A stretch of 32,000 nucleotides of DNA. Origin: Trichlorobacter lovleyi SZ (lineage in GTDB: Bacteria; Desulfobacterota; Desulfuromonadia; Geobacterales; Pseudopelobacteraceae). Location of the stretch: NCBI RefSeq assembly GCF_000020385.1, contig NC_010814.1, positions 60,001 through 92,000 of the forward strand, read 5' to 3'. Every line of letters begins with the position of its first letter. Within the stretch, counting starts at the first letter, position 1. Made by a program: the position numbers and the translations under genes. Under the pieces are notes generated by a model. That model saw nothing but the letters and a program-made list of their open reading frames with translations, did no database searches and was not told the DNA's origin. Shown here in pieces: positions 1-31,087 of the stretch.

Positions 1-541
1 CGATCCCCACATCCTCCAGTTCATCGGCTGTCAGTCCGAACACCTCGGCATGTACCAGCAACGAAAGGGAGGCAACATGCACACTGTGGGCAAAGGTATA
101 AAAATCGTGGTTAACAACCGCGTGCAGGGCCTCCAGCGGATTCGGGTTGCCGGCGATATACTGCATCAACTGGCGGACCAGATTGCGGCAGCGGTCCAGG
201 TTTGAGAGCTTGTCCGGCATCTCGAAGACATCCATGACGTAGTTCATGGCAACCTGGGAAAGCAGCTGACCCTTGACCGGCCCGGAGATTTCATCAGAGG
301 CCAGGATTTCCGAGATGCTTTCTTCAAGGAAATCGCAGACCTCTCTGATACTGCCGGCGTTTATATAGAGATGTTCCACCTGATTGTTGTGCAGCCGCTG
401 CAGGTCAGCCCTGGTGATTGGCCGGTCGGCCGGTTTATACAGCACCAGATTGGTGCCGCTCTGCATGTACAGGGCAACCTGCGGGAATTTTTCAGGATTG
501 ATACAGGCGGTATGGACCGGTCGATACTTTTCATCAAACAT
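1..541 (-). CDS. HD / HD-GYP-type phosphohydrolase, N-terminal part (3' end runs off the window start)
   Basis: Own minus-strand translation from ATG at 541-539 gives MFDEKYRPVHTACINPEKF...AVVNHDFYTFAHSVHVASLSLLVHAEVFGLTADELEDVGI, open to position 1. It carries an HD..T..HS..V motif. It is absent from the ORF track because no stop lies in the window. Confidence 0.7.
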   Translation of the reverse strand, partial: MFDEKYRPVHTACINPEKFPQVALYMQSGTNLVLYKPADRPITRADLQRLHNNQVEHLYINAGSIREVCDFLEESISEILASDEISGPVKGQLLSQVAMNYVMDVFEMPDKLSNLDRCRNLVRQLMQYIAGNPNPLEALHAVVNHDFYTFAHSVHVASLSLLVHAEVFGLTADELEDVGI

Positions 542-647
542 GGTAGCTGCTCCAAAGGTGGCTTTAAATGCCTTGTCTGGGCTGGACCAGGATTTCGGCT
601 GCCGGGTATTCTACATGAAATCAGACAGCCGGGCTGCAGATTTTTGG

Positions 648-1232
648 TTACTGCTGCTGCAGCTCCTGCCACCTGAAGCAGTCAACGGTATGGTCATTCA
701 CCATCCCCACCGCCTGCATCATGGCATAGCAGATGGTACTGCCCACAAAGCGGAAACCGTGCTTTTTCAGGTCACGGCTCAGGCTATCGGAAACCGCTGT
801 GCTGGCAGGCACCTCCTTGATGCTGCGCCAGCTGTTCTGGATCGGTCTGCCATCCACAAAACGCCACATATAGGCATCAAAGGAACCAAACTGCTCCTGC
901 ACCTGCAAAAAGGCGCGGGCATTGCTGATGGCTGATGCCACCTTCAGGCGGTTGCGTACAATACCGGGGTTTAGCAGCAGCTCTGCAACCTTCTGCTCAT
1001 CAAAGCGGGCCACCACAGTTGGATCAAAGTTCTCAAAAACAGTTCGATAGGCTGCCCGTTTACGCAGAATCGTGATCCAGGACAGTCCGGCCTGGGCCCC
1101 CTCCAGGATCAGGAACTCAAACAGCAGCCGGTCATCGTGCACCGGCACACCCCACTCAAGGTCGTGGTAGTCGCGGTAAAGCGGGTCACTGCCTGCCCAG
1201 GCGCAGCGGGTTGGTTGGCTGTTGGTGGTCAT
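648..1232 (-). CDS. tag: DNA-3-methyladenine glycosylase I
   Basis: 194-aa ORF with typical Tag signatures: YHD.EWG.P, ILEG.QAGLSW.TIL.KR, and a C-terminal CYAMMQAVGMVNDH..C. GAGG lies 5 nt upstream of the ATG. Confidence 0.93.
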   Translation of the reverse strand: MTTNSQPTRCAWAGSDPLYRDYHDLEWGVPVHDDRLLFEFLILEGAQAGLSWITILRKRAAYRTVFENFDPTVVARFDEQKVAELLLNPGIVRNRLKVASAISNARAFLQVQEQFGSFDAYMWRFVDGRPIQNSWRSIKEVPASTAVSDSLSRDLKKHGFRFVGSTICYAMMQAVGMVNDHTVDCFRWQELQQQ

Positions 1233-1252
1233 GGGAACCTCATGGGGGAACG

Positions 1253-1376
1253 GTTTAACGGGTTGCCGCTGAGCCGCGAGCGGTGTTGCTAGGCTAACCT
1301 GCCAACGGACGACCGAGAAACAGGTGAAATGCAGCGCACAGTACGCCGGTCCGAGTTGATTGAGCCGTTAGGGATT
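1253..1376 (-). repeat. Possible attC-like junction downstream of hicB (inverse-core-like CCCTAAC ... CCCGTTAAAC)
   Basis: Read on the minus strand, CCAATCCCTAACGG (rc of 1365-1378) begins 19-23 nt after the hicB stop. CCCGTTAAAC (rc of 1253-1262) lies just before the tag RBS. Only TAACGG/CCGTTA pair clearly and the internal pairing is poor. Confidence 0.3.
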
Positions 1377-1395
1377 GGATAGATTGAGTAGCTGA

Positions 1396-1722
1396 TTATG
1401 AAGCATGTGCCAGAACGTCAGACGCCCACTGGTTTATACTTACGCCATGAGCCTGCGCCATCATGGCTGCCCGAGCGTGGACTTCTGGTGGTACACGCAG
1501 CATGAGCTTGCCGGAGTACGGTTTTTGTGGTGCTCTTCCAACTCTTTCACAGGTTGCAAGATAGTCGTCAACTGCCTCCTCAAACGCTGCTCTCAGTTCT
1601 TTCACGGTTTCCGCATGGAAGCCGATAACATCTTTGATGCCGGCAATATGCCCGATAAAACATGCATCTTCGTCGCTATATTCAATTTTTGCAGCATAGC
1701 CCTTGAATGTCATTGTGCTCAT
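1396..1722 (-). CDS. hicB: HicB-family antitoxin
   Basis: 108 aa. N-terminal HicB fold pattern (FKGY.A.IEYSDED..F.G.I.GI.D.I.FH) and C-terminal RHH-like tail (L.LRVP.E.H..A...A...G.S.N.W). Its start overlaps the hicA stop as ATGA. Confidence 0.9.
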   Translation of the reverse strand: MSTMTFKGYAAKIEYSDEDACFIGHIAGIKDVIGFHAETVKELRAAFEEAVDDYLATCERVGRAPQKPYSGKLMLRVPPEVHARAAMMAQAHGVSINQWASDVLAHAS

Positions 1723-1973
1723 GGTTTTACTCCTGCGTTCTCCAGGAACGCCCTTGCATCTTTAACTTGATATGGTTTGGCCTCTTTTGCAGGGTGCGGG
1801 CGATGAAAAGTACCAATTATGCCGTTTAGCTCAAACCTGACCCTTGAACCGTTGCCTTCAATTGTTTGTGCACCGAGTGCAACGAACAATGATTCAATTT
1901 TTCTCCATTCCAAAGTTGCTGGAACAGGAAGTGAAAAAATAGCAAGCAGTGTGCTACGGTGAGATTTATTCAT
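1719..1973 (-). CDS. hicA: HicA-family mRNA-interferase toxin
   Basis: 84 aa with the pattern W..IE.L...LG......GS.V.F.....I..FHRPHP.KE. It lies upstream of and overlaps hicB by 4 nt, the canonical hicA-hicB order. Confidence 0.85.
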   Translation of the reverse strand: MNKSHRSTLLAIFSLPVPATLEWRKIESLFVALGAQTIEGNGSRVRFELNGIIGTFHRPHPAKEAKPYQVKDARAFLENAGVKP

Positions 1974-2007
1974 GAATTAAGGTTACCAAAGTGTCTATAG
2001 GAGTGCA

Positions 2008-2020
2008 ATCAAATATTGAT
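2008..2020 (-). promoter_or_regulatory. Candidate HicB operator palindrome ATCAAATATTGAT
   Basis: 13-bp palindrome (ATCAA-ATA-TTGAT) 35-47 nt upstream of the hicA ATG. The position suits antitoxin autoregulation. It is short and sits in AT-rich DNA. Confidence 0.3.
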
Positions 2021-2035
2021 ATCATTGTTTTGAAT

Positions 2036-2093
2036 CCCTAACGGGGCTGAGGCTGACCGGCATGTTTTAGGCCGGTCTTGGCGCAGGTTGGAC
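2036..2093 (-). repeat. 58-bp attC/59-be-like imperfect palindrome (element B) downstream of the AbiGi-like gene
   Basis: The minus strand reads GTCCAAC-ctgcgccaa-GACCGGC-ctaaaacat-GCCGGTC-agcctcag-CCCCGTTAGGG. GTCCAAC fits RYYYAAC exactly and starts 12 nt after the AbiGi stop. The 7-bp stem is 2055-2061/2071-2077. Confidence 0.55.
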
Positions 2094-2104
2094 AACATTC
2101 TTTT

Positions 2105-2902
2105 TTAAAAGTCTTTTCTTATTTGTTCCATCGTAATGATTCTAGTTGTTAATAAATCAATATCATCTTTGGAATATTTTGCTTTTATATATCTGAGCTT
2201 TTTTATAAAGTCTAAGACTTCTGTCTCACTGTCTAGGATGATATATTTTATGTCGCTTGGGGAAAATGATAGTTTGAATTGTTGTAGCTTTGTATTGTTA
2301 TAGTTTCGTATATCGTCGGCAGTAAATTCTTCTTTAGTCAATGAAGGTTTAAACTTATATTGCAGCATAGAATCAAGAGATGGTACATATCTCCACTCCC
2401 TTTCATCGTAAAACCTTACACCATCAACATATTTACCATTTCTCCACAGGGTTCCTTCATAAGGCTTGGACATAAATAAAAACAGTTCTAAATAAACCGC
2501 AATAAAGTCAAGAGTGGCTGGTTTTATTGAATTTAAATCTATGAGCTTACCAACGCTTTCATGATAGCTACCACGTAAATAGCCAGCAGTGGTGGCTTTT
2601 TCATAGGTATACAAAACAGGCGATATGCCTTTTGACTTCCCCCAATCTTTACTCAATCCAATGGCATAATTACCATAATTCTTTGCATGATTTCGTATGC
2701 TTGACAGTGGAATATCACAAAAACATACCATTGGTATTGCTCTTTCGCATAAATGAGGCAGACGATTGTGTTTAGAATTGAACATGGAATGATCTTCTAA
2801 GCAATATCGCGGATAAAACTCATTTACAAGTATACTCTCAAGGATTGATAAGCTGCTTGTGTAATGAAATAAGGTATCTGCACTTATAGGATTATAGTCC
2901 AT
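2105..2902 (-). CDS. AbiGi-family abortive-infection protein (solo, no AbiGii partner)
   Basis: 265 aa. N-terminus ...ADTLFHYTSSLSILESILVNEFYPRYCLED..., plus CFCDIPLS and YDEREWRY motifs as I recall for the AbiGi family. Very AT-rich (about 30-35% GC by eye) against about 60% in the flanks. Confidence 0.7.
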   Translation of the reverse strand: MDYNPISADTLFHYTSSLSILESILVNEFYPRYCLEDHSMFNSKHNRLPHLCERAIPMVCFCDIPLSSIRNHAKNYGNYAIGLSKDWGKSKGISPVLYTYEKATTAGYLRGSYHESVGKLIDLNSIKPATLDFIAVYLELFLFMSKPYEGTLWRNGKYVDGVRFYDEREWRYVPSLDSMLQYKFKPSLTKEEFTADDIRNYNNTKLQQFKLSFSPSDIKYIILDSETEVLDFIKKLRYIKAKYSKDDIDLLTTRIITMEQIRKDF

Positions 2903-2991
2903 TGGTAACCCACATAAATATTGATGATATTTTTGTATAATTTCGAAAAAGCAGTTTTATCAGTTGTTCAACTCGTTAATCTGCGGTTTCC

Positions 2992-3019
2992 CGATATGCG
3001 TAACTTGTTACCTATATCG
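2992..3019. repeat. 28-bp imperfect palindrome CGATAT-gc-GTAAC-tt-GTTAC-ct-ATATCG upstream of the AbiGi unit
   Basis: Read directly from the sequence. It lies 19 nt beyond the GTTCAAC box (2966-2972), the same relative position as the GC palindromes at the other two cargo genes. Confidence 0.4.
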
Positions 3020-3331
3020 GCTACTTGTTCCTCATATAAGTAACCACCCAGCCAGCTCAAAAATCCATCAGCGCTGCAAATATTCAATCGCAGAATCAGC
3101 GGGTTATCCGTGTTTATGTAAATTGTCAATTCAATTTACAATTTGCACAACAGGGTCAACTGCCGGTAAAAAAGTGAGAAAAACAGGGGTACCACACGTC
3201 TTTATCGAGGTTGTGCATCCCATTGATTCTACTCCCAGGTCTGGAACAGAGCTTCTCGGTTCAAAACCGCTCAGCCTTCATTCATCGGGGCAGAAACCGT
3301 ACTGGTAATCACTGGGGCACACTGCACAAAC

Positions 3332-3763
3332 CTAATCCGTGATTTCCACGTAGCCCCACCATTGGTCTGTGGTGGTGAATATGTTGCATTTGATGTTGGG
3401 CGGACAGGTACTGGTGGAAAATCTTACCGCAGGGGCAGAGGATTGCGTGCCTCCAAAGTAACGGCAGGTGCACTCGGGTGCCGTGCCGTGTTTAAACTTG
3501 AATGTGCCATTGCACATACCGGCAGTGGTCGTAAATTTAGTGTTTGCCTGACTGTTGGGGGGGATCGTGCAGGGGCCGTTTTCGCTGGTACATGCGCCAG
3601 TGAACCATACATTGCCATGACCGGCATCCACGGTAATAGTTACGGGCTGGCTTGAGCTGTTTTTAACCGCACGATTCCAGCTTTCACCCCAGGCATTGGA
3701 GAAGCTGATAAAGAAAAGGCTTAAAAACAGAAGCACTGTCCGCCGTTGCCATTGTGTATTCAT
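3332..3763 (-). CDS. Secreted Cys-rich small protein (143 aa) if translated from the internal ATG
   Basis: The ATG at 3763-3761 is preceded by AAGGAG (rc of 3772-3777) at 8-nt spacing. The N-terminus MNTQWQRRTVLLFLSLFFISFSNAWG is a classical Sec signal peptide. The mature part has 7 Cys and no family I recognise. Confidence 0.55.
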   Translation of the reverse strand: MNTQWQRRTVLLFLSLFFISFSNAWGESWNRAVKNSSSQPVTITVDAGHGNVWFTGACTSENGPCTIPPNSQANTKFTTTAGMCNGTFKFKHGTAPECTCRYFGGTQSSAPAVRFSTSTCPPNIKCNIFTTTDQWWGYVEITD

Positions 3764-5194
3764 CTTTAGATCTCCTTGCTGTATGGGATAACGAGCGACT
3801 GCTGAGATTCCACCTCTTGCATTGGCGTGTGAAATCTCCAGGTCATTGACCTGAACAAAGGCCGGTACCACGATCGCAGTGGGGTTACGGGCGCCATAAC
3901 TACTGGAGGTGTTACTGACGACCTGGGTTTGGGAGAGCCAGGCCAGCCTGTTACCAAATATATCCAGCAGGCTTTGGGTGATGCGCACATTGTAGGGCAC
4001 GACCACGGAGCCCTCTTTGGTGAGCAGCAACGCGCCAAAGCGCGAACTGGCCGTGATCAGCCCTGTGGAGGGGTTGACGATATTCAGGTAATGCAAGGAG
4101 GGAATGTACAGCAGGTCATTGCTGTGGGGCAGGTCAACCAGTTCTTTGAGCGTGCTGACCTGCGTGTTACCACCGGCCAGTACAAGGCTCTTGTGCATGA
4201 CCGTGTGCCCGGTGGGTGCGGTGCCAAACTCATCCGCATCATCCTGGGACCAGGTGAATGACCGGAACACCCCGTTGGCAAAGATCGGGAACGGTTTGCG
4301 CGGCATGCCCATGAAATCGCGCTGAAACGGGAATGTGTCCAGACAGGTGGGATCATCGCTCAGGGTAAACCGGCTTGATAAAACCTTTTGGCCGACCTGA
4401 TCCCCGGTTATGAAGGAAAACCCGCGTTTCATGGAGCCGCCGTCAAAACCGATGAAGTTCATAATGTCAATCAGTTCCGCAATGGCAGCAGAGCCGAACA
4501 CGACATCATACCTGCCCAGCGCTAGCTGACAGGGCGTATCCTGTTGGTACTGCTCCAGCAGGAAGGCCAGGTCACGGTGCAGCGCGGACGGGTCCAGGTC
4601 AGTTATTTGCCGGGCCGACTGCTCGGCCAGCAGTTCCCATTTGCGGGTGGCATGCGACAGGACAATGCTGATCTGCGCATCCGTGGTCTTGAAATACTGG
4701 CAGTGTTCCGAACGGGTGGTGATCTGCGCAAGGGTGGTCACACCAGTGGAAAAAATCCCGGAAAGCGTGATCTCATCCGCTTCAAGTCCTGCCACAGCCT
4801 GATTGAAAAACTCCAGGCGTGCCGCATTGGTGATCCCGGCCAGGCCGGCATCAAAGCCGCTTTCATCAATAAATGTTTCTGAAAAGGCCGGCATGGTGGG
4901 CTGGTAGTCCAGCGCCTGAGCATGCTTGACCATCTCTGCAGCACGATCCACCCCCTGCCTCATCTCCGCCATATTGCCCAAGGCGGTGATCAGTTCAAAG
5001 CTGGCCCGTTTGCGCCCTTCATAGGCGGTGATCTCCAGACGCAGAAGATGTTCGTTGGTGTTGAGCGAAATGGCCGAGTTGGCGCACCGCATCAGACAGC
5101 TCTCTTCCTCGTGCAGGAAGAACGCGGCATCAATCTGTTTTGCAAGCGCATAGGTGCGCAGGTCGTGCAAGGTTTGCAGAATCTGTTCCTTCAC
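3332..5194 (-). CDS. PmbA/TldE-family metallopeptidase-like protein whose ORF lacks a stop and continues in frame into a signal-peptide/Cys-rich module
   Basis: 620-aa ORF. GTG start at 5194 lies 2 nt after the tldD stop, with AGGAGAG upstream. Residues 1 to about 459 look like the TldD/PmbA family without HExxxH. An 18-aa linker (RGGISAVARYPIQQGDLK) and the module below follow. Confidence 0.8.
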   Translation of the reverse strand: MKEQILQTLHDLRTYALAKQIDAAFFLHEEESCLMRCANSAISLNTNEHLLRLEITAYEGRKRASFELITALGNMAEMRQGVDRAAEMVKHAQALDYQPTMPAFSETFIDESGFDAGLAGITNAARLEFFNQAVAGLEADEITLSGIFSTGVTTLAQITTRSEHCQYFKTTDAQISIVLSHATRKWELLAEQSARQITDLDPSALHRDLAFLLEQYQQDTPCQLALGRYDVVFGSAAIAELIDIMNFIGFDGGSMKRGFSFITGDQVGQKVLSSRFTLSDDPTCLDTFPFQRDFMGMPRKPFPIFANGVFRSFTWSQDDADEFGTAPTGHTVMHKSLVLAGGNTQVSTLKELVDLPHSNDLLYIPSLHYLNIVNPSTGLITASSRFGALLLTKEGSVVVPYNVRITQSLLDIFGNRLAWLSQTQVVSNTSSSYGARNPTAIVVPAFVQVNDLEISHANARGGISAVARYPIQQGDLKMNTQWQRRTVLLFLSLFFISFSNAWGESWNRAVKNSSSQPVTITVDAGHGNVWFTGACTSENGPCTIPPNSQANTKFTTTAGMCNGTFKFKHGTAPECTCRYFGGTQSSAPAVRFSTSTCPPNIKCNIFTTTDQWWGYVEITD

Positions 5195-5196
5195 CG

Positions 5197-6651
5197 CTAC
5201 TCTCCTATGGTCACCTGGTCAAAACGGCAGACCGGCACGCCATGCCCCAACTGCATGATCTGATTGGGTTGACCCTTGCCGCAGTTATTCACACTGAGCA
5301 GCTCCCAGGTGGAGCGGTCCCCCACGGCTGAAAGCGCATTGTAGAACGGGATAGTCTCCCCCCGGTAGGTGGCGTTCTTGACAACCCGGGTAATTGCGCC
5401 ATCTTCCACCAGCCAGCCGATATCAACCGCAAAATGGAACTGCTCACGGTTGGAGCCGATGGACCAGCTCTTGTCGCCATCCAGGATGATCCCTTTTTCA
5501 GTGTTCCTGACGATCTCATCCAGCGAACCATCAGTGCCAGGGTCGATGTTGATGTTGGTCATACGCTCGATCGGCGCCCGGTAAAAGGCAGTGGCACGGT
5601 TGGCGCCGCCGCTGCCCTTGAAGATGGTTTTTCCGGCGCGGGCGTTGGCCTCAGCCACCATCTGGCGCCCGGTAATAGCGCCCACCAGCAGGCCCTGGTC
5701 AATCAGCAGGTTGTCCTGTGCCGGCACGCCATCATCATCATAACCAAAACTGCCGGGGGAGTTGGGAAGCGTGGCATCGGCGCGGGCGGTCAACTTGGGG
5801 GAACCGTATTGCAGCGTGCCAAAATCTTCCAACCTGACGAACGAGCCGCCCGCATAGGCCAGCTCATAGCCCAGGATGCGGTCCAGTTCCAGCGCATGGC
5901 CGATGGTTTCGTGGGTTTGCAGGTACATGATGCCGGGCAACAGGATGACGGAACGTACGTCCGTGGGGCAGGTCTCCGCCACCCGCACCGCATTCATCTC
6001 CTGCACGATCCGCTCGGCCTGCTCGTTGAACAAGGCCGGATCAATGGTTTCCCAACCACGGGTCGTGCTGTCGAGCGTGGGGTGGAACGTCCGTGCATGG
6101 GTCTCTCCGTGGCTGTCCAGCCCCATGACCTGCATCGAGGGAAACACCTCGATAATGCGCTTCTCGATCTCGCTTCCCTCGGAATCCAGGTACACGATCT
6201 GCTTGCGCGTGAAACTCAGCTCACAGACTCGCTGGCTGACGCCCGGCTGGTTCAGACGGTCGTCCAACGCCTTCATGAACCCTACCTTGTCTGCCAGCGG
6301 GATGGAAAACGGGTCAATCCGGTTCGGGCTGGAGAAGGTACCCTGCACAGGTGCCTTATCTGCCAGGTGAACCGGAAAGGTACACCGCTGCGCTGCCACA
6401 CGGGCGTTATCCAGGGCTTTGTCAAAAAGCGCGCTGAGGTTGCCCGCATCAGACGAGGCAGAAAACCCCCACGCCCCCTGGTACAAGACACGGATACCCA
6501 CCCCGCTCTCGCGGGATGCGGCAGCATTCTTCAAATTGCCATTCCATATCATCAGATGCTCGGTTTCTTCAACCGGATACCAGCGTGCATCAACGTAGGA
6601 CGCACCCGCTGTCTTCAGCCGTTCGATCTGCTCTTGTAATTGCTTACGCAT
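5197..6651 (-). CDS. tldD: TldD-family zinc metalloprotease
   Basis: 484 aa with the HETIGHALELD (HExxxH) motif and a TldD-like overall pattern. AAGGAAGGA lies upstream of the ATG. It is translationally coupled to the PmbA-like gene. Confidence 0.9.
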   Translation of the reverse strand: MRKQLQEQIERLKTAGASYVDARWYPVEETEHLMIWNGNLKNAAASRESGVGIRVLYQGAWGFSASSDAGNLSALFDKALDNARVAAQRCTFPVHLADKAPVQGTFSSPNRIDPFSIPLADKVGFMKALDDRLNQPGVSQRVCELSFTRKQIVYLDSEGSEIEKRIIEVFPSMQVMGLDSHGETHARTFHPTLDSTTRGWETIDPALFNEQAERIVQEMNAVRVAETCPTDVRSVILLPGIMYLQTHETIGHALELDRILGYELAYAGGSFVRLEDFGTLQYGSPKLTARADATLPNSPGSFGYDDDGVPAQDNLLIDQGLLVGAITGRQMVAEANARAGKTIFKGSGGANRATAFYRAPIERMTNINIDPGTDGSLDEIVRNTEKGIILDGDKSWSIGSNREQFHFAVDIGWLVEDGAITRVVKNATYRGETIPFYNALSAVGDRSTWELLSVNNCGKGQPNQIMQLGHGVPVCRFDQVTIGE

Positions 6652-6710
6652 TGTTCCTTCCTTGGCACCTGCTTGGTCTGTTACTGCCTGGTTGGCAATA
6701 ATCCTTAGAG

Positions 6711-7340
6711 CTACAGATGCCGGGTATCGGAGCGAATCGGAGTGACGCCATCTGCCGAATCCAGGGTAATAGGTATATCCGGCAGATTTTGGTAAACTTC
6801 CTCCACCGTGGCATAACGGGTCAGTACCTGCAGCACCTGCGGCAGCGGTGAGAGCAATACCTCCAGCAGATCAGCTTCATCCGGCTGATCAGGATGAAAG
6901 GCCAGCTGTTCTTTTGGCGGGCAGAACTGGGCATCCACCCCCGGCTTGTTGCCGCGCGCATCGATCCGGTACCAGCCATGACCCTCCAGCCAGACCGCGT
7001 TCAGGCCATGCAGGCAAAAAGGGGCGCCGTTGCCTGTCTTGGACAGGCGCTGGTAACACAGCCCGGCCGGGATGCCGTTGGCCCGCAGCAGGGCTGCCAG
7101 CAGATGGCTCTTGGCATAGCAGTAACCGGTGCCATACTCCAACACATCCGAGGCCACGCAGGTGACCGGATTCTGACGGTAATCCCAACTGTGCCTGATC
7201 TGGTCCCGCACAAACTCGAAACAGCGCCGGGCGATCTCTGTCTTGTCTGTTGATCCTGCGGACAGCAGTTTGGCCTTGACCAGTATGGCCGGATGCTGCC
7301 AGTTGATCCAGCTGCTCTGCTCAAGATACTTTTTCATCAT
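6711..7340 (-). CDS. Transglutaminase-like cysteine peptidase family protein
   Basis: Cys-His-Asp core: GTGYCYAKSHLLAALLRANGIPAGL, HGLNAVWLEGHGWYRIDAR. I prefer the start at MMKKY (7340, AAGGAA upstream) to the track's 7373. Confidence 0.85.
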   Translation of the reverse strand: MMKKYLEQSSWINWQHPAILVKAKLLSAGSTDKTEIARRCFEFVRDQIRHSWDYRQNPVTCVASDVLEYGTGYCYAKSHLLAALLRANGIPAGLCYQRLSKTGNGAPFCLHGLNAVWLEGHGWYRIDARGNKPGVDAQFCPPKEQLAFHPDQPDEADLLEVLLSPLPQVLQVLTRYATVEEVYQNLPDIPITLDSADGVTPIRSDTRHL

Positions 7341-7384
7341 GTCGGTTCCTTGGTGATGCAAATATACACACAATACGTTGCTTT

Positions 7385-8578
7385 TTATGCAGGGCAGCCC
7401 ATTTCAGCGCCTGCAACAAACACCTGATCAAGCAGCCTCAGGCAGGTATCCACCTCATCCGCGCTTACATTCAGGGCCGGCATGAAGCGCAGGGTATCGG
7501 GCCGGGCGGCATTGATAATCAGGCCAAGCTCACGGGCGGCCTCGGTAACGGCATCCCCGTTATTGGCCGGAAGTGCCAGGGCCTGCAGCAGTCCGCTGCC
7601 CCGAACCTCGCCCAGGCCATGCCGTGTGGAGAGCTTCCGCAGCCCATTGGCCAGCTGCACCCCTCTCTCACGGACCTGTTCCAGAAAACCGGGCTGCAGC
7701 ATGGCTTCCAGCACAGCACAGCCAACCGCAGCCATCAGCGGATTACCATTGTAGGTGCCGCCCTGGTCACCCGGTTCAAAACAGCAGACCGCCTCCTTGG
7801 CCAGCAGGGCAGCCAAAGGGACCCCGCCGCCGATCCCCTTGCCCAGGCTCATGATATCCGGCTCTACTCCGGCCTGCTGGTATGCAAACAGTGAGCCGAG
7901 CCGCCCCATGCCGGTCTGGACCTCATCAAAGATCAGCAGCAGCTGGTGCTGATCAGCCAACTGCCGCAGACCCTGCAGAAAGAGTTGACTGGCCGGGATC
8001 ACCCCGGCCTCGCCCTGCACCGGTTCCAGCATGATCGCCACCGTACGCTCTGAAATGGCCGCTGTTACCGCCTCAAGGTCATTCAGTCCTACCTTGATGA
8101 AGCCGGGCACCTTGGGCTCGAACAGCCCCTGCCAGTGCGGCTTGCCCGAGGCGGACATGGTTGCCAGGGTACGGCCATGGAAGCCGTTGACCATGGTGAT
8201 GATCTCATAGGCGCCCTGCTTGTGCAGGCTGCCCCACTTGCGCGCCAGCTTGATGGCCCCTTCATTGGCCTCTGCCCCGCTGTTGGCAAAAAAGACCCGC
8301 TCAAAGCAGCTGTTGGCGGTCAGCAGGTCAGCCAGCCGGATGGCAGGCTGATTGTAAAAGGCCGGGCTGGGGCTGATCAACTGAGCTGCCTGCTGGCTGA
8401 GGGCCTGCGTGATCACGGCTGGCGCATGCCCCAGGCAGTTGACTGCCCAGCCCTGGATAAAATCCAGGTAGCGCTTGCCATTGCTGTCTGTCAGCCACGA
8501 GCCCTGGCCTGCCACCATTACAATCGGTGGCCGTTTGGTGATGGTCATCAACGAATCAAATGCGCTGCTTTCAGACAT
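7385..8578 (-). CDS. argD: Class-III PLP aminotransferase, acetylornithine aminotransferase-like
   Basis: Motifs [30 protein letters not shown] and SLGKGIGGG (PLP lysine). Start placed at MSESS (8578) behind GGAGGAGG. The track's 45-aa N-terminal extension to 8713 crosses a terminator hairpin. The symbol is tentative because this may be a paralogue. Confidence 0.85.
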
Positions 8579-8614
8579 GGTTCCTCCTCCTTGCTGTGCC
8601 GTCTGTGGAGGGGG

Positions 8615-8649
8615 AAATAAAAAAGCCCGCCTCCATGGGAGACGGGCTT
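8615..8649 (-). terminator. Rho-independent terminator-like hairpin just upstream of the aminotransferase RBS
   Basis: The minus-strand RNA reads AAGCCCGUCUCC-CAU-GGAGGCGGGCUU followed by UUUUAUUU. The single mismatch is G-U only on the minus-strand transcript, so it is strand-specific. Confidence 0.7.
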
Positions 8650-8847
8650 GGGTAATTGGCTGTGATGAATTAAACGGACGTACCTTACTCCATTGCACCG
8701 TGCATGGTGACACCTCTGTGCGCTATGAAGGAGTGACGTCGGATCATGGTCAAGAGCTTGCCTCAAAATTCGCAGCCCTGTCAATTGTTTTCAAGATTCT
8801 TTGGCAGATCAATCACGGTTACCCCTGCAACCGTAGCAAGCCATGTG

Positions 8848-8931: not shown

Positions 8932-10086
8932 TCATAAGTTATAAGAGGCTACCGCGTGTAGATGAGGTCCGTCTTCCCTGAGATAAGACAATAACTCATA
9001 AAATGACACATCTACGCTCCATCGCCCCATGGCATAACCACTGACTTGACCTGTTGGAAAGAGGAATGTGAAGCGGTCTGCGCTGACAGTGTATGTTTTG
9101 AAATGACTAGCATCTTCACCAGCACCGTTTTTAAATGATTCGATCTGAAAATCACTCGGTGTCTCTCCAGTTCGGTGCCAGTACTCTTTCGATAGCTCAT
9201 GGATGCATATTTCACTTATCCTTTTGATAGCACCTTGAGAATCTGAAAAGAAATCGGTTAGTTCAAGCTTGCGCACTTTGTCGACGTACTCAAAATTATA
9301 TGTTACGTAATAATAATTGGGGTGGGCCGCACCTGCATAGTACAGCCCAACATCATATGTGAGACTCAGGAATCGGTCAGTGGCATGGACAATCGCGAAA
9401 TTTTCCCAACAGCCATTTACCGCAGCAGCCCCTCTGGTTTTAAAAAATTCAGGCTCCTGTTCCCATGGCTTCTGCCTTGCGTCGATCAGGTCCGCGTATG
9501 CTCTCCCTACGAACAGGGCAGACAGTTCTTTAGCGACATCGGGCTTTGATGTGGACTGAAATCTTGGATACTCGATCTCGATATTGTGACCAGGCAAACC
9601 GTCCCAGTTATCTTCTATTCTTTCCGTAAAGACATTGAAAGGACCTGCAACTACACCATGTTCCAATTCGATTGATTGCTGCTCAGATGCCAGTCTGAGT
9701 GCTGCCTTGACCTGATCCCAAGCGCCTGGAACATTAAGGTCAACGTATTGTAGCCGAGCAGCTATGTGAGTCGGTACCTCGCAAGGCTCAAGCAGCAGCG
9801 GTATTACGTAAATATCTGTAAGTTGCTTATATCTTAGGCGTTCTATCGCATCATTAGCTTCTCTCTGCACAAAGCCTCGCTTTGTCACGCTTCGCTTGCT
9901 GAGCAAAAGCACTACTACATTTGCATCGCTAAAAGCCCGCTCTATTTCCGCTTCCCAGTTCTGGCCTGGCAATAGGTGCTTAGAATCAACCCACGGGGAA
10001 ACTCCCTCTTTAGCCAGAAGTTCATAATAGTGCTCGGCACTTTCGCGGTCCTCCTTGGCATAGCTAATAAAGACTTTCAGAGCCAC
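8932..10086 (-). CDS. TIR-domain protein fused to an RsiV/PdaC-like DUF4163-DUF3298 domain
   Basis: GTG start with GGAG 5 nt upstream. N-terminal TIR pattern: KVFISYAKEDRE.A......L...GV.PWVD......G..W...I..A....NVVVLLLSKRSV.....VQRE. The C-terminal part shows IEIEYPRF.S......ELS, YYAGAAHPNYYYVTYNF....K..EL.DFF and FLFPTGQVSGYAMGRWSVDVSFYEL, matching my memory of DUF4163/DUF3298. About 45% GC. Confidence 0.75.
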   Translation of the reverse strand: MALKVFISYAKEDRESAEHYYELLAKEGVSPWVDSKHLLPGQNWEAEIERAFSDANVVVLLLSKRSVTKRGFVQREANDAIERLRYKQLTDIYVIPLLLEPCEVPTHIAARLQYVDLNVPGAWDQVKAALRLASEQQSIELEHGVVAGPFNVFTERIEDNWDGLPGHNIEIEYPRFQSTSKPDVAKELSALFVGRAYADLIDARQKPWEQEPEFFKTRGAAAVNGCWENFAIVHATDRFLSLTYDVGLYYAGAAHPNYYYVTYNFEYVDKVRKLELTDFFSDSQGAIKRISEICIHELSKEYWHRTGETPSDFQIESFKNGAGEDASHFKTYTVSADRFTFLFPTGQVSGYAMGRWSVDVSFYELLSYLREDGPHLHAVASYNL

Positions 10087-10111
10087 ATTATCTCCATTTA
10101 TTACTTTTGTT

Positions 10112-10180
10112 TTCCAACTTGCTATTCACCGGTTCACGCGCGCGCGTGAACCGGTGAACCTCCCAAACGGAATATTTATC
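10112..10180. repeat. Conserved junction repeat, copy 1, containing a perfect 34-bp GC palindrome
   Basis: TTCCAAC-ttgctat-TTCACCGGTTCACGCGCGCGCGTGAACCGGTGAA-cctCCCAAACGGAATATTTATC. The segment 10125-10158 is its own reverse complement. It lies between the PIN stop and the TIR start and aligns with 31015-31087. Confidence 0.85.
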
Positions 10181-10592
10181 CCGCTGCTGCAAAATATCCT
10201 TCTGCCGTGACCACACGGATGCTGCTCTTACGGTAATGCCGGACATTACGGGTGATCAGCCCGGAGCAGCGTGCGCTGAGTGCGCAAAAATACTGCAGCG
10301 CATCTTCAAAGTCGGTAAACCCGGCATGCAGGGCCTGCTCAACAATGGTATCATCCACCGCAACCACACTGACCAACTGTTTGAAGGTGCGCAGCACTTG
10401 TTGGGCCTGCGGGCCAGAGTGCTGCTTTCTCAGCAGATAGAACAGATTGGCAAAGGTAAGTGAAGAAACGCACAAAGTCAGGTTGCCTGCCTCTGCCTCT
10501 GAAAAAAGCCGCGCAGCAGCGTCATAAAACGGCTCACGCCGCGCAAGCAGATCAAGCACAACATCCGTATCAACGAACAGATACGGCTTCAT
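10176..10592 (-). CDS. PIN-domain toxin (VapC-like)
   Basis: 138 aa with N-terminal FVDTDVVLDLL, acidic residues spaced as in PIN domains, and ...DFEDALQ.... It overlaps the upstream antitoxin gene by 4 nt. Confidence 0.85.
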   Translation of the reverse strand: MKPYLFVDTDVVLDLLARREPFYDAAARLFSEAEAGNLTLCVSSLTFANLFYLLRKQHSGPQAQQVLRTFKQLVSVVAVDDTIVEQALHAGFTDFEDALQYFCALSARCSGLITRNVRHYRKSSIRVVTAEGYFAAAG

Positions 10593-10834
10593 CGGTATTT
10601 ATCCGCCAGATAATCGGTATAGTCCCGCTTGTAATCTTTGACTTTGGCAGCATCAAGTACGCCGGAAAGCTGGGCCACCAGTGGCGTTACCGGCCTGGTC
10701 TGCTCTTTGGGCGCAGAAACCTGCCGCAGGTAGCCTTCAATCAGCTTTGAAAGGCTCTGGTGCTGCGATTGGGCAAAGCGTTTGGCCTGTTCAATTACAT
10801 CGTGATCAAGGCTTAAGGTAAGTTTTGTGTTCAT
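10589..10834 (-). CDS. DUF6364-type antitoxin partner of the PIN toxin
   Basis: 81 aa. MNTKLTLSLDHDVIEQAKRFAQSQHQSLSKLIEGYL matches the pattern I recall for DUF6364 antitoxins. AAGGAG lies upstream of the ATG. Confidence 0.75.
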   Translation of the reverse strand: MNTKLTLSLDHDVIEQAKRFAQSQHQSLSKLIEGYLRQVSAPKEQTRPVTPLVAQLSGVLDAAKVKDYKRDYTDYLADKYR

Positions 10835-30118: not shown

Positions 30119-30991
30119 TTAACAATCAGTTACGACATGTTCTTGTATTTCCTCAATTGCATTTCTTGGGTTGTAAATTTCCGAATTAAATGGCCATAGA
30201 GGGTGCATCAGGGGAAATCTTGATATGTTGATTTGGGAAGGGTAGGAAGCACTTCTGAATGAAAGGTGGTTGTCGTACTGAGCTGACAAATAGTATCCTT
30301 CGTGCCCTTTCATCGCAGCAGCCTGGATATTCCCACCGACAAGTAAGTTTTGAGGATCCTCGATTTCTCTTCTTATTGCTCTTACACAAGCAATTTCCAA
30401 TGCAGTCTCGATCGGCATTCGTGGCTTACAAATCAATAACTTATTAACCTCACATAGAATAATACCCTTTATTTCGTTTTTTCTATCGCCAATAACTCCG
30501 AAATAGACACCGTGTTCATTCGGAACTTCCTCTAACGGGTATACTTCTCTAGGAGTTCCAATTTTTTCAAAAATCCTGGTTCGTCCTGAGTCATCTGCAA
30601 GCATAAATAAGTATTCAATTTCTTTGTCATAAGCAGTCCGCCAGAAGTTGTCTATAGTTTCGTCTATTATTTCGATCAGTTGATCAAATTTTGCTCCACC
30701 AAGCAATCCGATTATGACAGCTTCTAAATGTATTATGCTTTGAAGTCCAAGGGAGACTGCTCCTGCAACAGATGCAACAATGTCTCGGCGACCTCGTTTT
30801 CTATCCGACTTCATGACGTGCAGTTTGATTCCAAAATCATTTTGATGACATATTTCTGTATCTGATGGGATGTTGACAAAACCATTCTCGACATTCTTAT
30901 TCCTCACTACTGTCAGTCTTGAATCTGAGAGTGCCATGGCTTGATCATATGCTTCTCTATTAAAATGTCTGTATGAAATACAAAGCGTCAT
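30119..30991 (-). CDS. Hypothetical protein, possibly an HslV/proteasome-beta-like Ntn hydrolase (by-eye similarity only)
   Basis: 290 aa, about 40% GC. MTLCISYRH...AMALSDSRLT...IVASVAGAVSLGL...YLFMLADDSGRTRIF...VYFGVIGDRKNEIKG...EDPQNLLVGGNIQAAAM loosely parallels blocks of E. coli HslV and 20S beta subunits recalled from memory. The SD is weak. Confidence 0.6.
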   Translation of the reverse strand: MTLCISYRHFNREAYDQAMALSDSRLTVVRNKNVENGFVNIPSDTEICHQNDFGIKLHVMKSDRKRGRRDIVASVAGAVSLGLQSIIHLEAVIIGLLGGAKFDQLIEIIDETIDNFWRTAYDKEIEYLFMLADDSGRTRIFEKIGTPREVYPLEEVPNEHGVYFGVIGDRKNEIKGIILCEVNKLLICKPRMPIETALEIACVRAIRREIEDPQNLLVGGNIQAAAMKGHEGYYLSAQYDNHLSFRSASYPSQINISRFPLMHPLWPFNSEIYNPRNAIEEIQEHVVTDC

Positions 30992-31014
30992 AGTATTGTC
31001 GAGTTCCCTGAAGT

Positions 31015-31087
31015 GACCAACTAGTTATTGACCGGTTAACGCGCGCACGCGCGTGAACCGGTGATCTACCCAAATGGAATGTTTATC
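31015..31087. repeat. Conserved junction repeat, copy 2 (imperfect 34-bp GC palindrome)
   Basis: GACCAAC-tagttatt-GACCGGTTAACGCGCGCACGCGCGTGAACCGGTG-atctaCCCAAATGGAATGTTTATC. It aligns along its length with 10112-10180, with one 4-nt indel and a few substitutions. It lies between the Fic stop and the 290-aa gene start. Confidence 0.85.

Follow-up and report, generated by a model that had tools for sequence, protein, structure and literature searches.

The 32,000-nucleotide stretch of Trichlorobacter lovleyi DNA analysed here (the window) carries a gene of the AbiGi family and a hicAB gene pair next to the chromosomal gene tag. Our analysis indicates that the segment spanning 1249–3062 is very probably a small cluster of integron gene cassettes without a neighbouring integrase, an attC-site cluster that has no integron integrase (CALIN), composed of an AbiGi cassette and a hicAB cassette. 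Read on the minus strand, the segment runs from a 90-nt leader, which ends at the core site G↓TTGAAC (the arrow marks the crossover point), through AbiGi, its 58-nt attC, G↓TTAGGG, hicA-hicB and an attC of ~125 nt to tag (Table 1). The locus is a known kind of element and not a new system; its sole unusual feature is the attI-like leader, which stands without an integrase. A CALIN is recognised by at least two clustered attC sites with no intI near, and here two such sites, one of them decayed, lie 662 nt apart. Each carries core boxes (GTCCAAC ... GTTAGGG in the first, CCCTAAC ... residual GTT in the second), and both lengths fall inside the ~57–141 nt range.

Integron integrases fold the bottom strand of attC, in which the outer boxes are R' (GTTRRRY) and R'' (RYYYAAC). 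Strand exchange by the integrase (IntI) takes place between G and TT within R', so the final six bases of a cassette's own R' come to stand at the start of its linear form, where they pair with the R'' located after the gene (PMC4889954). The sequence-only reading of this DNA had singled out a perfect 12-bp inverted repeat around hicAB, and the repeat stands as described: CCGTTAGGGATT at 1365–1376 on the plus strand has its exact reverse complement at 2033–2044, and the two arms bracket hicB and hicA. Judged from the sequence, this repeat is best read as the R'/R'' box pair of the hicAB attC, split by an IntI crossover. In accordance with this, TTAGGGATT at the start of the hicAB cassette pairs with AATCCCTAA at the hicAB attC, and the complementarity between cassette start and own R'' reaches 7/7 in the box and 12/12 overall. 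Because the crossover falls between G and TT, the right arm would belong half to the AbiGi attC (up to the G) and half to the hicAB cassette, and the extra CCG/CGG of the repeat arises because both neighbouring attC sites end in CCCG. The left 7 nt of this arm are the R' of the AbiGi attC, the point at which homology to a metagenomic array (contig L091, described below) ends, and the proposal that the right arm is also the 3' end of the element belonging to the AbiGi unit was thus borne out. With gaps ignored, the arms can be extended to 23 nt at 78% complementarity (1365–1387 and 2022–2044). Across the whole window we counted 3 spaced pairs of perfect 12-nt inverted repeats within 1 kb, compared with ~1.9 expected (32000 x 1000 / 4^12), so the significance of the repeat derives from its position and homology and not from its length. 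For this specific 12-mer, by contrast, a second copy is not expected by chance: shuffling gave 0.12 matches per shuffle, and two copies were reached in 1 of 100 shuffles.

The hicAB unit has the properties of a cassette in other genomes. By sequence, hicA and hicB are assigned as a HicAB type II toxin-antitoxin (TA) pair: hicA is located directly upstream of hicB and overlaps it, and a weak RHH match accompanies the HicB assignment. A protein under the name Trichlorobacter lovleyi matches HicB at 100% identity, and HicB homologues above 90% identity are found on contigs labelled Trichlorobacter, Dehalococcoidales, Desulfocapsaceae and Desulfomonilaceae. A 95% identical hicAB lies in the array of contig L099 behind a recombinase that scores 477.6 bits on the TIGR02249 "integron integrase" model (cut-off 265). 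In related strains (L299–L301), hicAB sits near the distal end of an array behind a 324-aa recombinase with Phage_int_SAM_4 and Phage_integrase domains, the same domain pair as in the L099 IntI. DNA homology to the hicAB of the window starts exactly at G↓TTAGGGATTCAAAACAATGATATC (G↓TTAGGG) in six loci (L099, L102, L097, L098, L100 and L096) and extends to the R' of a conserved 132-nt attC, both boundaries lying at G↓TT, and the seven loci, window included, show four different sequences upstream of the unit. The cassette has a conserved 5' leader (TTAGGGATTCAAAACAATGATATCAATATTTGATTGCAC) that probably carries its own promoter and operator; a promoter scan returned fewer consensus sites than in shuffled sequence, with none upstream of either cassette gene.

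The attC of the hicAB cassette is a decayed member of this 132-nt family. An nhmmer profile built from 13 family attC sites gave a single match in the window (1372..1256, minus strand, E = 1.4e-22), which spans model positions 2–115 of 132 and leaves the last 17, corresponding to the spacer and R', unmatched. In intact members, some bases are left extrahelical when L'' (AT-C-AAC-T-CGG) and L' (CCG-GTT-AT) pair, and R' lies 9 nt beyond L', with the continuation CTCGTAAAC-GTTAGGN. The site in the window has lost 6 nt from the L'–R' spacer; chromosomal DNA sets in directly behind its ACC-GTT, and only GTT (1251–1249) of R' survives. Of the core-site order given by the sequence-only reading, all motifs were found on the minus strand where it had placed them (GTTGAAC 2972..2966, GTCCAAC 2093..2087, GTTAGGG 2042..2036, CCCTAAC 1373..1367 and GTTAAAC 1259..1253), but the last had been misassigned, as the 13-member alignment places it on the L' box (GGTTAT) and not on R'. 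We counted 9 of 19 diagnostic base pairs in the window, compared with 17–19 of 19 in the 13 relatives. This count is based on a hand-specified structure of 19 pairs, divided among the R box (6 bp), the L box (8 bp, with extrahelical bases) and an extension of 5 bp; it was used because RNAalifold, applied to the 132-nt family, found the R box and not the L box. The decay therefore accounts for the poor fold of 1253–1376 that had earlier been obtained by eye. The hicAB attC thus appears to be a fossil with a decayed 3' end, so hicAB is probably not excisable any more.

For the AbiGi unit, the closest homologue is P0001 (93% amino acid identity), which we identified on metagenome contigs L091–L094 and which in L091 is encoded by the first of eight same-strand cassettes. 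In this array, a 51–63-nt site of the form RYYYAAC...GTTRRRY follows each of the seven complete units, the eighth overrunning the contig end. In five of these cassettes, R'' and the GTTRRRY in front of the gene are exact reverse complements (GTTATAC/GTATAAC, GTTAGCG/CGCTAAC, GTTGGGC/GCCCAAC, GTTATGC/GCATAAC and GTTGGCT/AGCCAAC). The 58-nt attC in the window (2093..2036, GTCCAAC-CTGCGCCAAGACCGGCCTAAAACATGCCGGTCAGCCTCAGCCCC-GTTAGGG) is homologous to L091 1172–1229, the site that follows AbiGi there, as far as R', where the window has GTTAGGG and L091 has GTTATAC. R' likewise marks the 3' boundary of the AbiGi unit across L091–L094, and at the 5' end homology runs on into a leader common to these loci, the boundary there being taken from the core site. 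The two consecutive cassette-like units abutting tag that the sequence-only reading had proposed are thus units that also occur in real arrays (L091 for AbiGi, L099 and L299–L301 for hicAB). The start of the AbiGi cassette (G↓TTGAACAACT, first bases GTTGAACAACT) and TGTTGTCCAAC, which surrounds the cassette's own R'', are complementary at 9 of 11 positions overall and at 6 of 7 in the box. As the attC now stands in the array, R'' and R' form only four Watson–Crick pairs and one wobble pair of seven; the predicted fold features a 7-bp central stem and an asymmetric internal loop, with z only -1.6 to -3.0 relative to shuffles. A third attC family was found on L293, a contig of a 4.5-Mb genome, where positions 1–8783 hold an integron array with attC sites of ~115 nt (GCCTAAC ... 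GTTAGGC). There, a 44%-identical AbiGi homologue forms a single-gene cassette, and the rule of complementarity between start and R'' holds exactly in this array as well. AbiGi-like genes are therefore found as single-gene cassettes in three different attC families.

We infer that the AbiGi cassette would still be excisable, whereas hicAB would be fixed by the decay of its attC 3' end. IntI would have inserted hicAB at this locus first and AbiGi afterwards, next to the leader. The hicAB pair would be expressed from its own promoter and could stabilise the locus by addiction; stabilisation of arrays by TA cassettes is established elsewhere (PMC13108822), and by analogy such a role for hicAB is plausible. 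AbiGi would act alone as a defence or abortive-infection protein.

Several observations weigh against assignment of the locus as a CALIN. Two core sites depart from the strict consensus, as GTTAGGG ends in G and not in Y, and CCCTAAC starts with C and not with R. Support for the attC sites comes from a family-specific nhmmer profile for the hicAB site and from homology to sites of other arrays. For 10 short attC sites taken together, MAFFT mis-registered the stems and RNAalifold found no consensus fold. The hicAB attC folds no better than shuffled sequences (z = +0.83), and with its deletion and lost pairs only one fully convincing attC is left. Also, the leader bears no likeness to the resident integron's attI.

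The integrase that could have served this locus is encoded elsewhere. We found no intI in the window, where the best tblastn match with IntI had E = 0.41, and the genes called in the ~10 kb on each flank include no intI, other recombinase or insertion sequence (IS) element. Exactly the same Tag protein occurs on 16 public contigs, including JBNLSA010000038.1 of assembly GCA_050171295.1, and the 2.2-kb region shows 99.8–100% identity in the five other contigs that were compared. On contig JBNLSA010000030.1 (L227), this assembly also has a gene for IntI, whose product P0249 is 89% identical to the L099 enzyme. The attI of this resident integron ends in ...TAATAAAC directly before GTTAGGG (over a longer stretch, ...TTTAGGACGTCTAATAAAC before GTTAGGG), and its first attC belongs to the same homogeneous 132-nt family as the hicAB attC. 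As intI is on a different contig, the cluster beside tag does not combine intI, adjacent attI and array in the manner of a complete integron; with none near, the locus thus fits a CALIN in a genome that also harbours a complete integron (PMC4889954).

Comparison with a syntenic relative defines the borders of the insertion. Contig L011, from a Trichlorobacter metagenome-assembled genome, retains the order pmbA ... tag ... HD-domain gene, with pmbA upstream of tag, and a DUF4143 ATPase gene replaces AbiGi and hicAB. The tag-proximal comparison that had been proposed as a check shows a syntenic relative without either unit, and not the vertical inheritance that would have refuted the reading. 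The window and L011 cease to be homologous just past the palindrome at 3117–3140, and their homology returns at CCCCCAYGAGG, directly after GTT 1251–1249 and 12–15 nt upstream of the tag start codon; therefore the DNA from ~3116 to 1249 is all inserted. The right-hand border is informed by L011 only, since the region upstream of tag is not homologous in the more distant relatives L012–L017. The palindrome itself is perfect, is 100% conserved between the window and L011, and has the look of an operator. On the pmbA side, the 620-aa "pmbA" open reading frame (ORF) at 3332–5194 is a read-through fusion of pmbA, which is 461 aa long in L003, L005 and L156, with a 143-aa ORF (3332–3766). The latter has a hydrophobic N-terminus; L003 and L005 have it as a gene of its own, and L011 and L156 lack it.

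In the leader at the array-proximal end, GTTACTTATAT(N)AG recurs in direct and in inverted orientation, and there are one or two hairpins, including CCGATATAGGTAAC-AA-GTTACGCATATCGG. The leader ends in GGGAAACCG..GATTAAC-GA-G↓TT in the window, and its general form is ...GGGAAACCG..(G)ATTAAC-NA-G↓TTRRRY. We identified it in three further contexts (L091 170–290, L156 1197–1285 on the minus strand and L206 285–400), where the first gene that follows is AbiGi, as in the window, an HNH gene and a small ORF, respectively. A metagenome pattern scan proved too loose, as only L156 and L206 among its 120 matches were real after blastn, and a scan of viral contigs gave only chance matches of 18–26 nt. 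In L156, the sequence after the HNH gene (205–235, minus strand; TGCATAAAAAATAGTTATGCA) has R''-like and R'-like boxes only 6 nt apart and repeats TAGTTATGCA from the start of that gene; it may be a minimal or collapsed attC.

It is possible, and we propose it tentatively, that the leader is a working attI-like docking site and that the pmbA–tag interval is a second, integrase-less platform served in trans by IntI, at which cassettes are gained and lost. This question concerns the origin of the array and not the identity of its units. In all four contexts the leader ends in a GTTRRRY core followed by a first gene, and its end resembles the L/R arrangement of a simple site ((G)ATTAAC-NA-GTTRRRY). 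L156 lies at the same pmbA locus as the window with a different first gene, which implies turnover in place; turnover could also result if DNA that had been taken up recombined homologously through the conserved flanks. Successive insertions at an attI would fit the observed order leader-AbiGi-hicAB, and an IntI is present in the genome; however, the leader shows no sequence resemblance to the resident attI, and integrases are usually specific for their own attI. None of the four contexts has an integrase beside the leader, only these four instances were found, with none in the viral-contig scan, and the leader could equally be a promoter or operator region. A broader reading joins this idea to the nature of AbiGi: the leader would be a new attI-like dock without an adjacent integrase, with pmbA–tag and the unrelated loci L091 and L206 as satellite platforms served in trans, and the solo AbiGi-like proteins carried by them would be stand-alone effectors, possibly with an ADP-ribosyltransferase-like fold, rather than "antitoxins". 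As a whole, we consider this combination rather unlikely.

Also rather improbable, in our assessment, is that the CALIN was split from the main array by chromosomal rearrangement or illegitimate recombination and not formed by site-specific insertion at this position. This route to a CALIN is listed by Cury et al (PMC4889954), and the truncated 3' end of the hicAB attC is the trace expected of a junction that is not site-specific. In the related strains L299–L301, hicAB is near the distal end of the main array, and a block consisting of a sigma-54 activator, radical SAM, GSP_synth and DUF350 genes lies beyond it; in the assembly of the window (L227) the same block is located on the opposite side of intI, a difference suggestive of rearrangement in the surroundings of the main integron. 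Against a split, the right junction still reads GTT followed by chromosomal DNA, and the leader at the left end is common with L156, which carries a different cassette at the same locus. The absence of IS elements and recombinases from the flanks argues in the same direction. The "empty" form of the site would read leader-GTTCCCCC-tag.

The AbiGi protein appears to be a solo member of its family. In the lactococcal system, AbiGi works with a partner, AbiGii. The sequence-only reading had described AbiGi here as alone, and our searches agree: the ORFs at 2903–3331 have no Pfam match, and no AbiGii family was found within ~10 kb on either side. Nor did AbiGii turn up among the neighbours of AbiGi homologues (DUF5677, a 225-aa ORF and others), and all six genomic contexts examined for this AbiGi subfamily lack it. 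The window therefore lacks the adjacent AbiGi and AbiGii genes of a two-gene AbiG system, and the protein scores 87.9 bits on the NCBIfam equivalog for lactococcal AbiGI, for which the cut-off is 300. Given the six contexts without AbiGii and the single-gene cassette of L293, we conclude that the solo state is the norm for this subfamily and that its adjacency to hicAB is incidental. The suggestion that AbiGi and HicAB cooperate, with HicAB regulating AbiGi or replacing the missing AbiGii in one functional system, accordingly found no support and seems to us very unlikely. It has in its favour only the adjacency of the two units and the partnership known for lactococcal AbiGi (PMC13064643), whereas each unit has its own attC and is found without the other in other arrays. 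AbiGi occurs beside DUF5677 (L091), beside unrelated genes (L095, L292 and L295) and in another integron (L293), and hicAB occurs among many different cassettes.

The AlphaFold model of AbiGi is a confident one, with a predicted local distance difference test score (pLDDT) of 88. Foldseek searches with this model against the PDB and BFVD found no match at E <= 0.001; in both libraries the best weak matches were to proteins of the ADP-ribosyltransferase fold, DarT (E = 0.13), and Tpt1. Searches of AbiGi sequence profiles against PDB and Pfam returned nothing, and a 2026 review likewise found no structural match for AbiGi (PMC13064643). The residues invariant in the family are H13-x-T15, Y76/G77/Y79 and E167-R-E169-W-R171. 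The model and these residues hint that AbiGi could be an enzymatic effector rather than an "antitoxin".

A reading of the 12-bp repeat as the terminal inverted repeat of an element carrying hicAB, either a small transposon or one resembling a miniature inverted-repeat transposable element (MITE), or as a chance repeat in an ordinary defence islet, is highly implausible: the repeat neatly encloses a two-gene module and repeats of this length are near chance level in the window, yet there is no target-site duplication or transposase, both arms fall on the R' and R'' boxes, the AbiGi unit has the same complementarity between start and R'', and other genomes have the hicAB module within attC arrays behind IntI, bordered at G↓TT.

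Table 1. Features of the two-cassette locus next to tag (window coordinates).
Feature	Position	Strand	Remarks
tag (DNA-3-methyladenine glycosylase I)	648..1232	-	Pfam Adenine_glyco 1.5e-83; conserved chromosomal gene abutted by the array
attC of hicAB cassette, ~125 nt	1249..1373	-	Decayed member of the 132-nt Trichlorobacter attC family; nhmmer profile, alignments
Boxes of hicAB attC		-	R'' CCCTAAC 1373..1367; L'' AATCAACTCGG 1361..1351; L' CCCGTTAA 1262..1255; residual GTT 1251..1249
hicAB gene cassette	1251..2041	-	From TT of G↓TTAGGG to G of residual R'
hicB antitoxin	1396..1722	-	Pfam HicB 6e-22
hicA toxin	1719..1973	-	Pfam HicA_toxin 2e-11; 4-nt overlap with hicB (1719–1722)
attC of AbiGi cassette, 58 nt	2036..2093	-	R'' GTCCAAC 2093..2087; central stem GACCGGC/GCCGGTC; R' GTTAGGG 2042..2036
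AbiGi gene cassette	2042..2971	-	From TT of G↓TTGAAC to G of R'
AbiGi-like gene, 265 aa	2105..2902	-	Single-gene cassette; Pfam AbiGi 6.8e-82; PADLOC AbiGi 4.4e-56
Core site G↓TTGAAC	2966..2972	-	Joint of AbiGi cassette and leader; equivalents GTTAGAC (L091), GTTATGC (L156, L206)
AttI-like leader, ~90 nt	2973..3062	-	Array-proximal, conserved; alignment with L091, L156, L206
Palindrome TGTAAATTGAATTGACAATTTACA	3117..3140	.	Final stretch common with L011 (about 686–710) before inserted DNA; alignment

The G+C content drops to 35–45% over 1500–3000, compared with 54–58% on the tag side and ~52–65% in most of the remaining window. A search of 1000–3900 against Rfam returned no family. Overall, the window is rich in defence and TA genes: in addition to AbiGi, hicAB and Fic, a DUF6364/PIN TA pair (10176–10834) adjoins a TIR gene. 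An element of ~75 nt with the palindrome TCACCGGTTCACGCGC/GCGCGTGAACCGGTGA is present twice (10105–10180 and 31010–31087), each copy just upstream of a low-G+C gene on the minus strand, namely a TIR_2+DUF3298 gene (8932–10086) and a 290-aa gene (30119–30991) that has no Pfam match and adjoins a Fic/DOC gene. This element may be an operator common to both genes, or it may mark where another type of inserted module ends.

Read as integron cassette recombination, the locus would give a direct account of an otherwise puzzling perfect repeat. It also indicates that Trichlorobacter, an organohalide-respiring lineage, moves TA and defence genes as cassettes, both in its main integron and at a second site. 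An apparently intact attC beside a naturally decayed one offers a ready pair for asking which features of attC are needed by IntI. The AbiGi-like single-gene cassettes in three attC families make good candidates for phage defence by a single gene, and it is worth testing whether "antitoxin", their label in Pfam, is apt. If the leader is a true integration site, it bears on how integrase-less cassette clusters arise.

Compared with the lactococcal AbiG system, the protein encoded in the window shares the Pfam AbiGi domain but has no AbiGii partner and falls below the lactococcal equivalog cut-off. By family, AbiGi is a candidate defence-associated protein, and it resembles the anti-phage integron cassettes described recently (Darracq et al, 2024, 10.1101/2024.07.02.601686; "Mobile integrons encode phage defense systems", 10.1101/2024.07.02.601719) in being a small defence-associated ORF carried as a one-gene cassette. 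As far as the accessible text of these two reports goes, AbiGi-like cassettes are not mentioned there, and the cassette fits the trend to streamlined one-gene defence systems that this text reports. A literature search for AbiG in integron defence cassettes gave only a 2020 review of phage therapy, the title of which is not about integron cassettes. The hicAB unit corresponds to the TA cassettes of sedentary chromosomal integrons, for example in Vibrio (PMC13108822; 10.1101/2024.07.02.601686), in that a two-gene type II TA system forms a single cassette with its own conserved 5' leader, is widespread and near-identical across hosts, and has array stabilisation as its expected role. It differs in the family, HicAB here as opposed to PfiAT as the commonest reported one, in its host, Trichlorobacter (Desulfuromonadales), and in its location outside the main array. 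As in described CALINs, the locus has two attC sites less than 1 kb apart, no intI nearby and non-resistance cassettes, and the genome encodes IntI elsewhere, as is the case for about half of them (PMC4889954). In contrast to these, it is of minimum size, with two sites of which one is decayed at its 3' end, the two attC sites come from families that differ in length and sequence, and the locus begins with a conserved attI-like leader, a feature that the accessible text of the integron literature compared does not mention.

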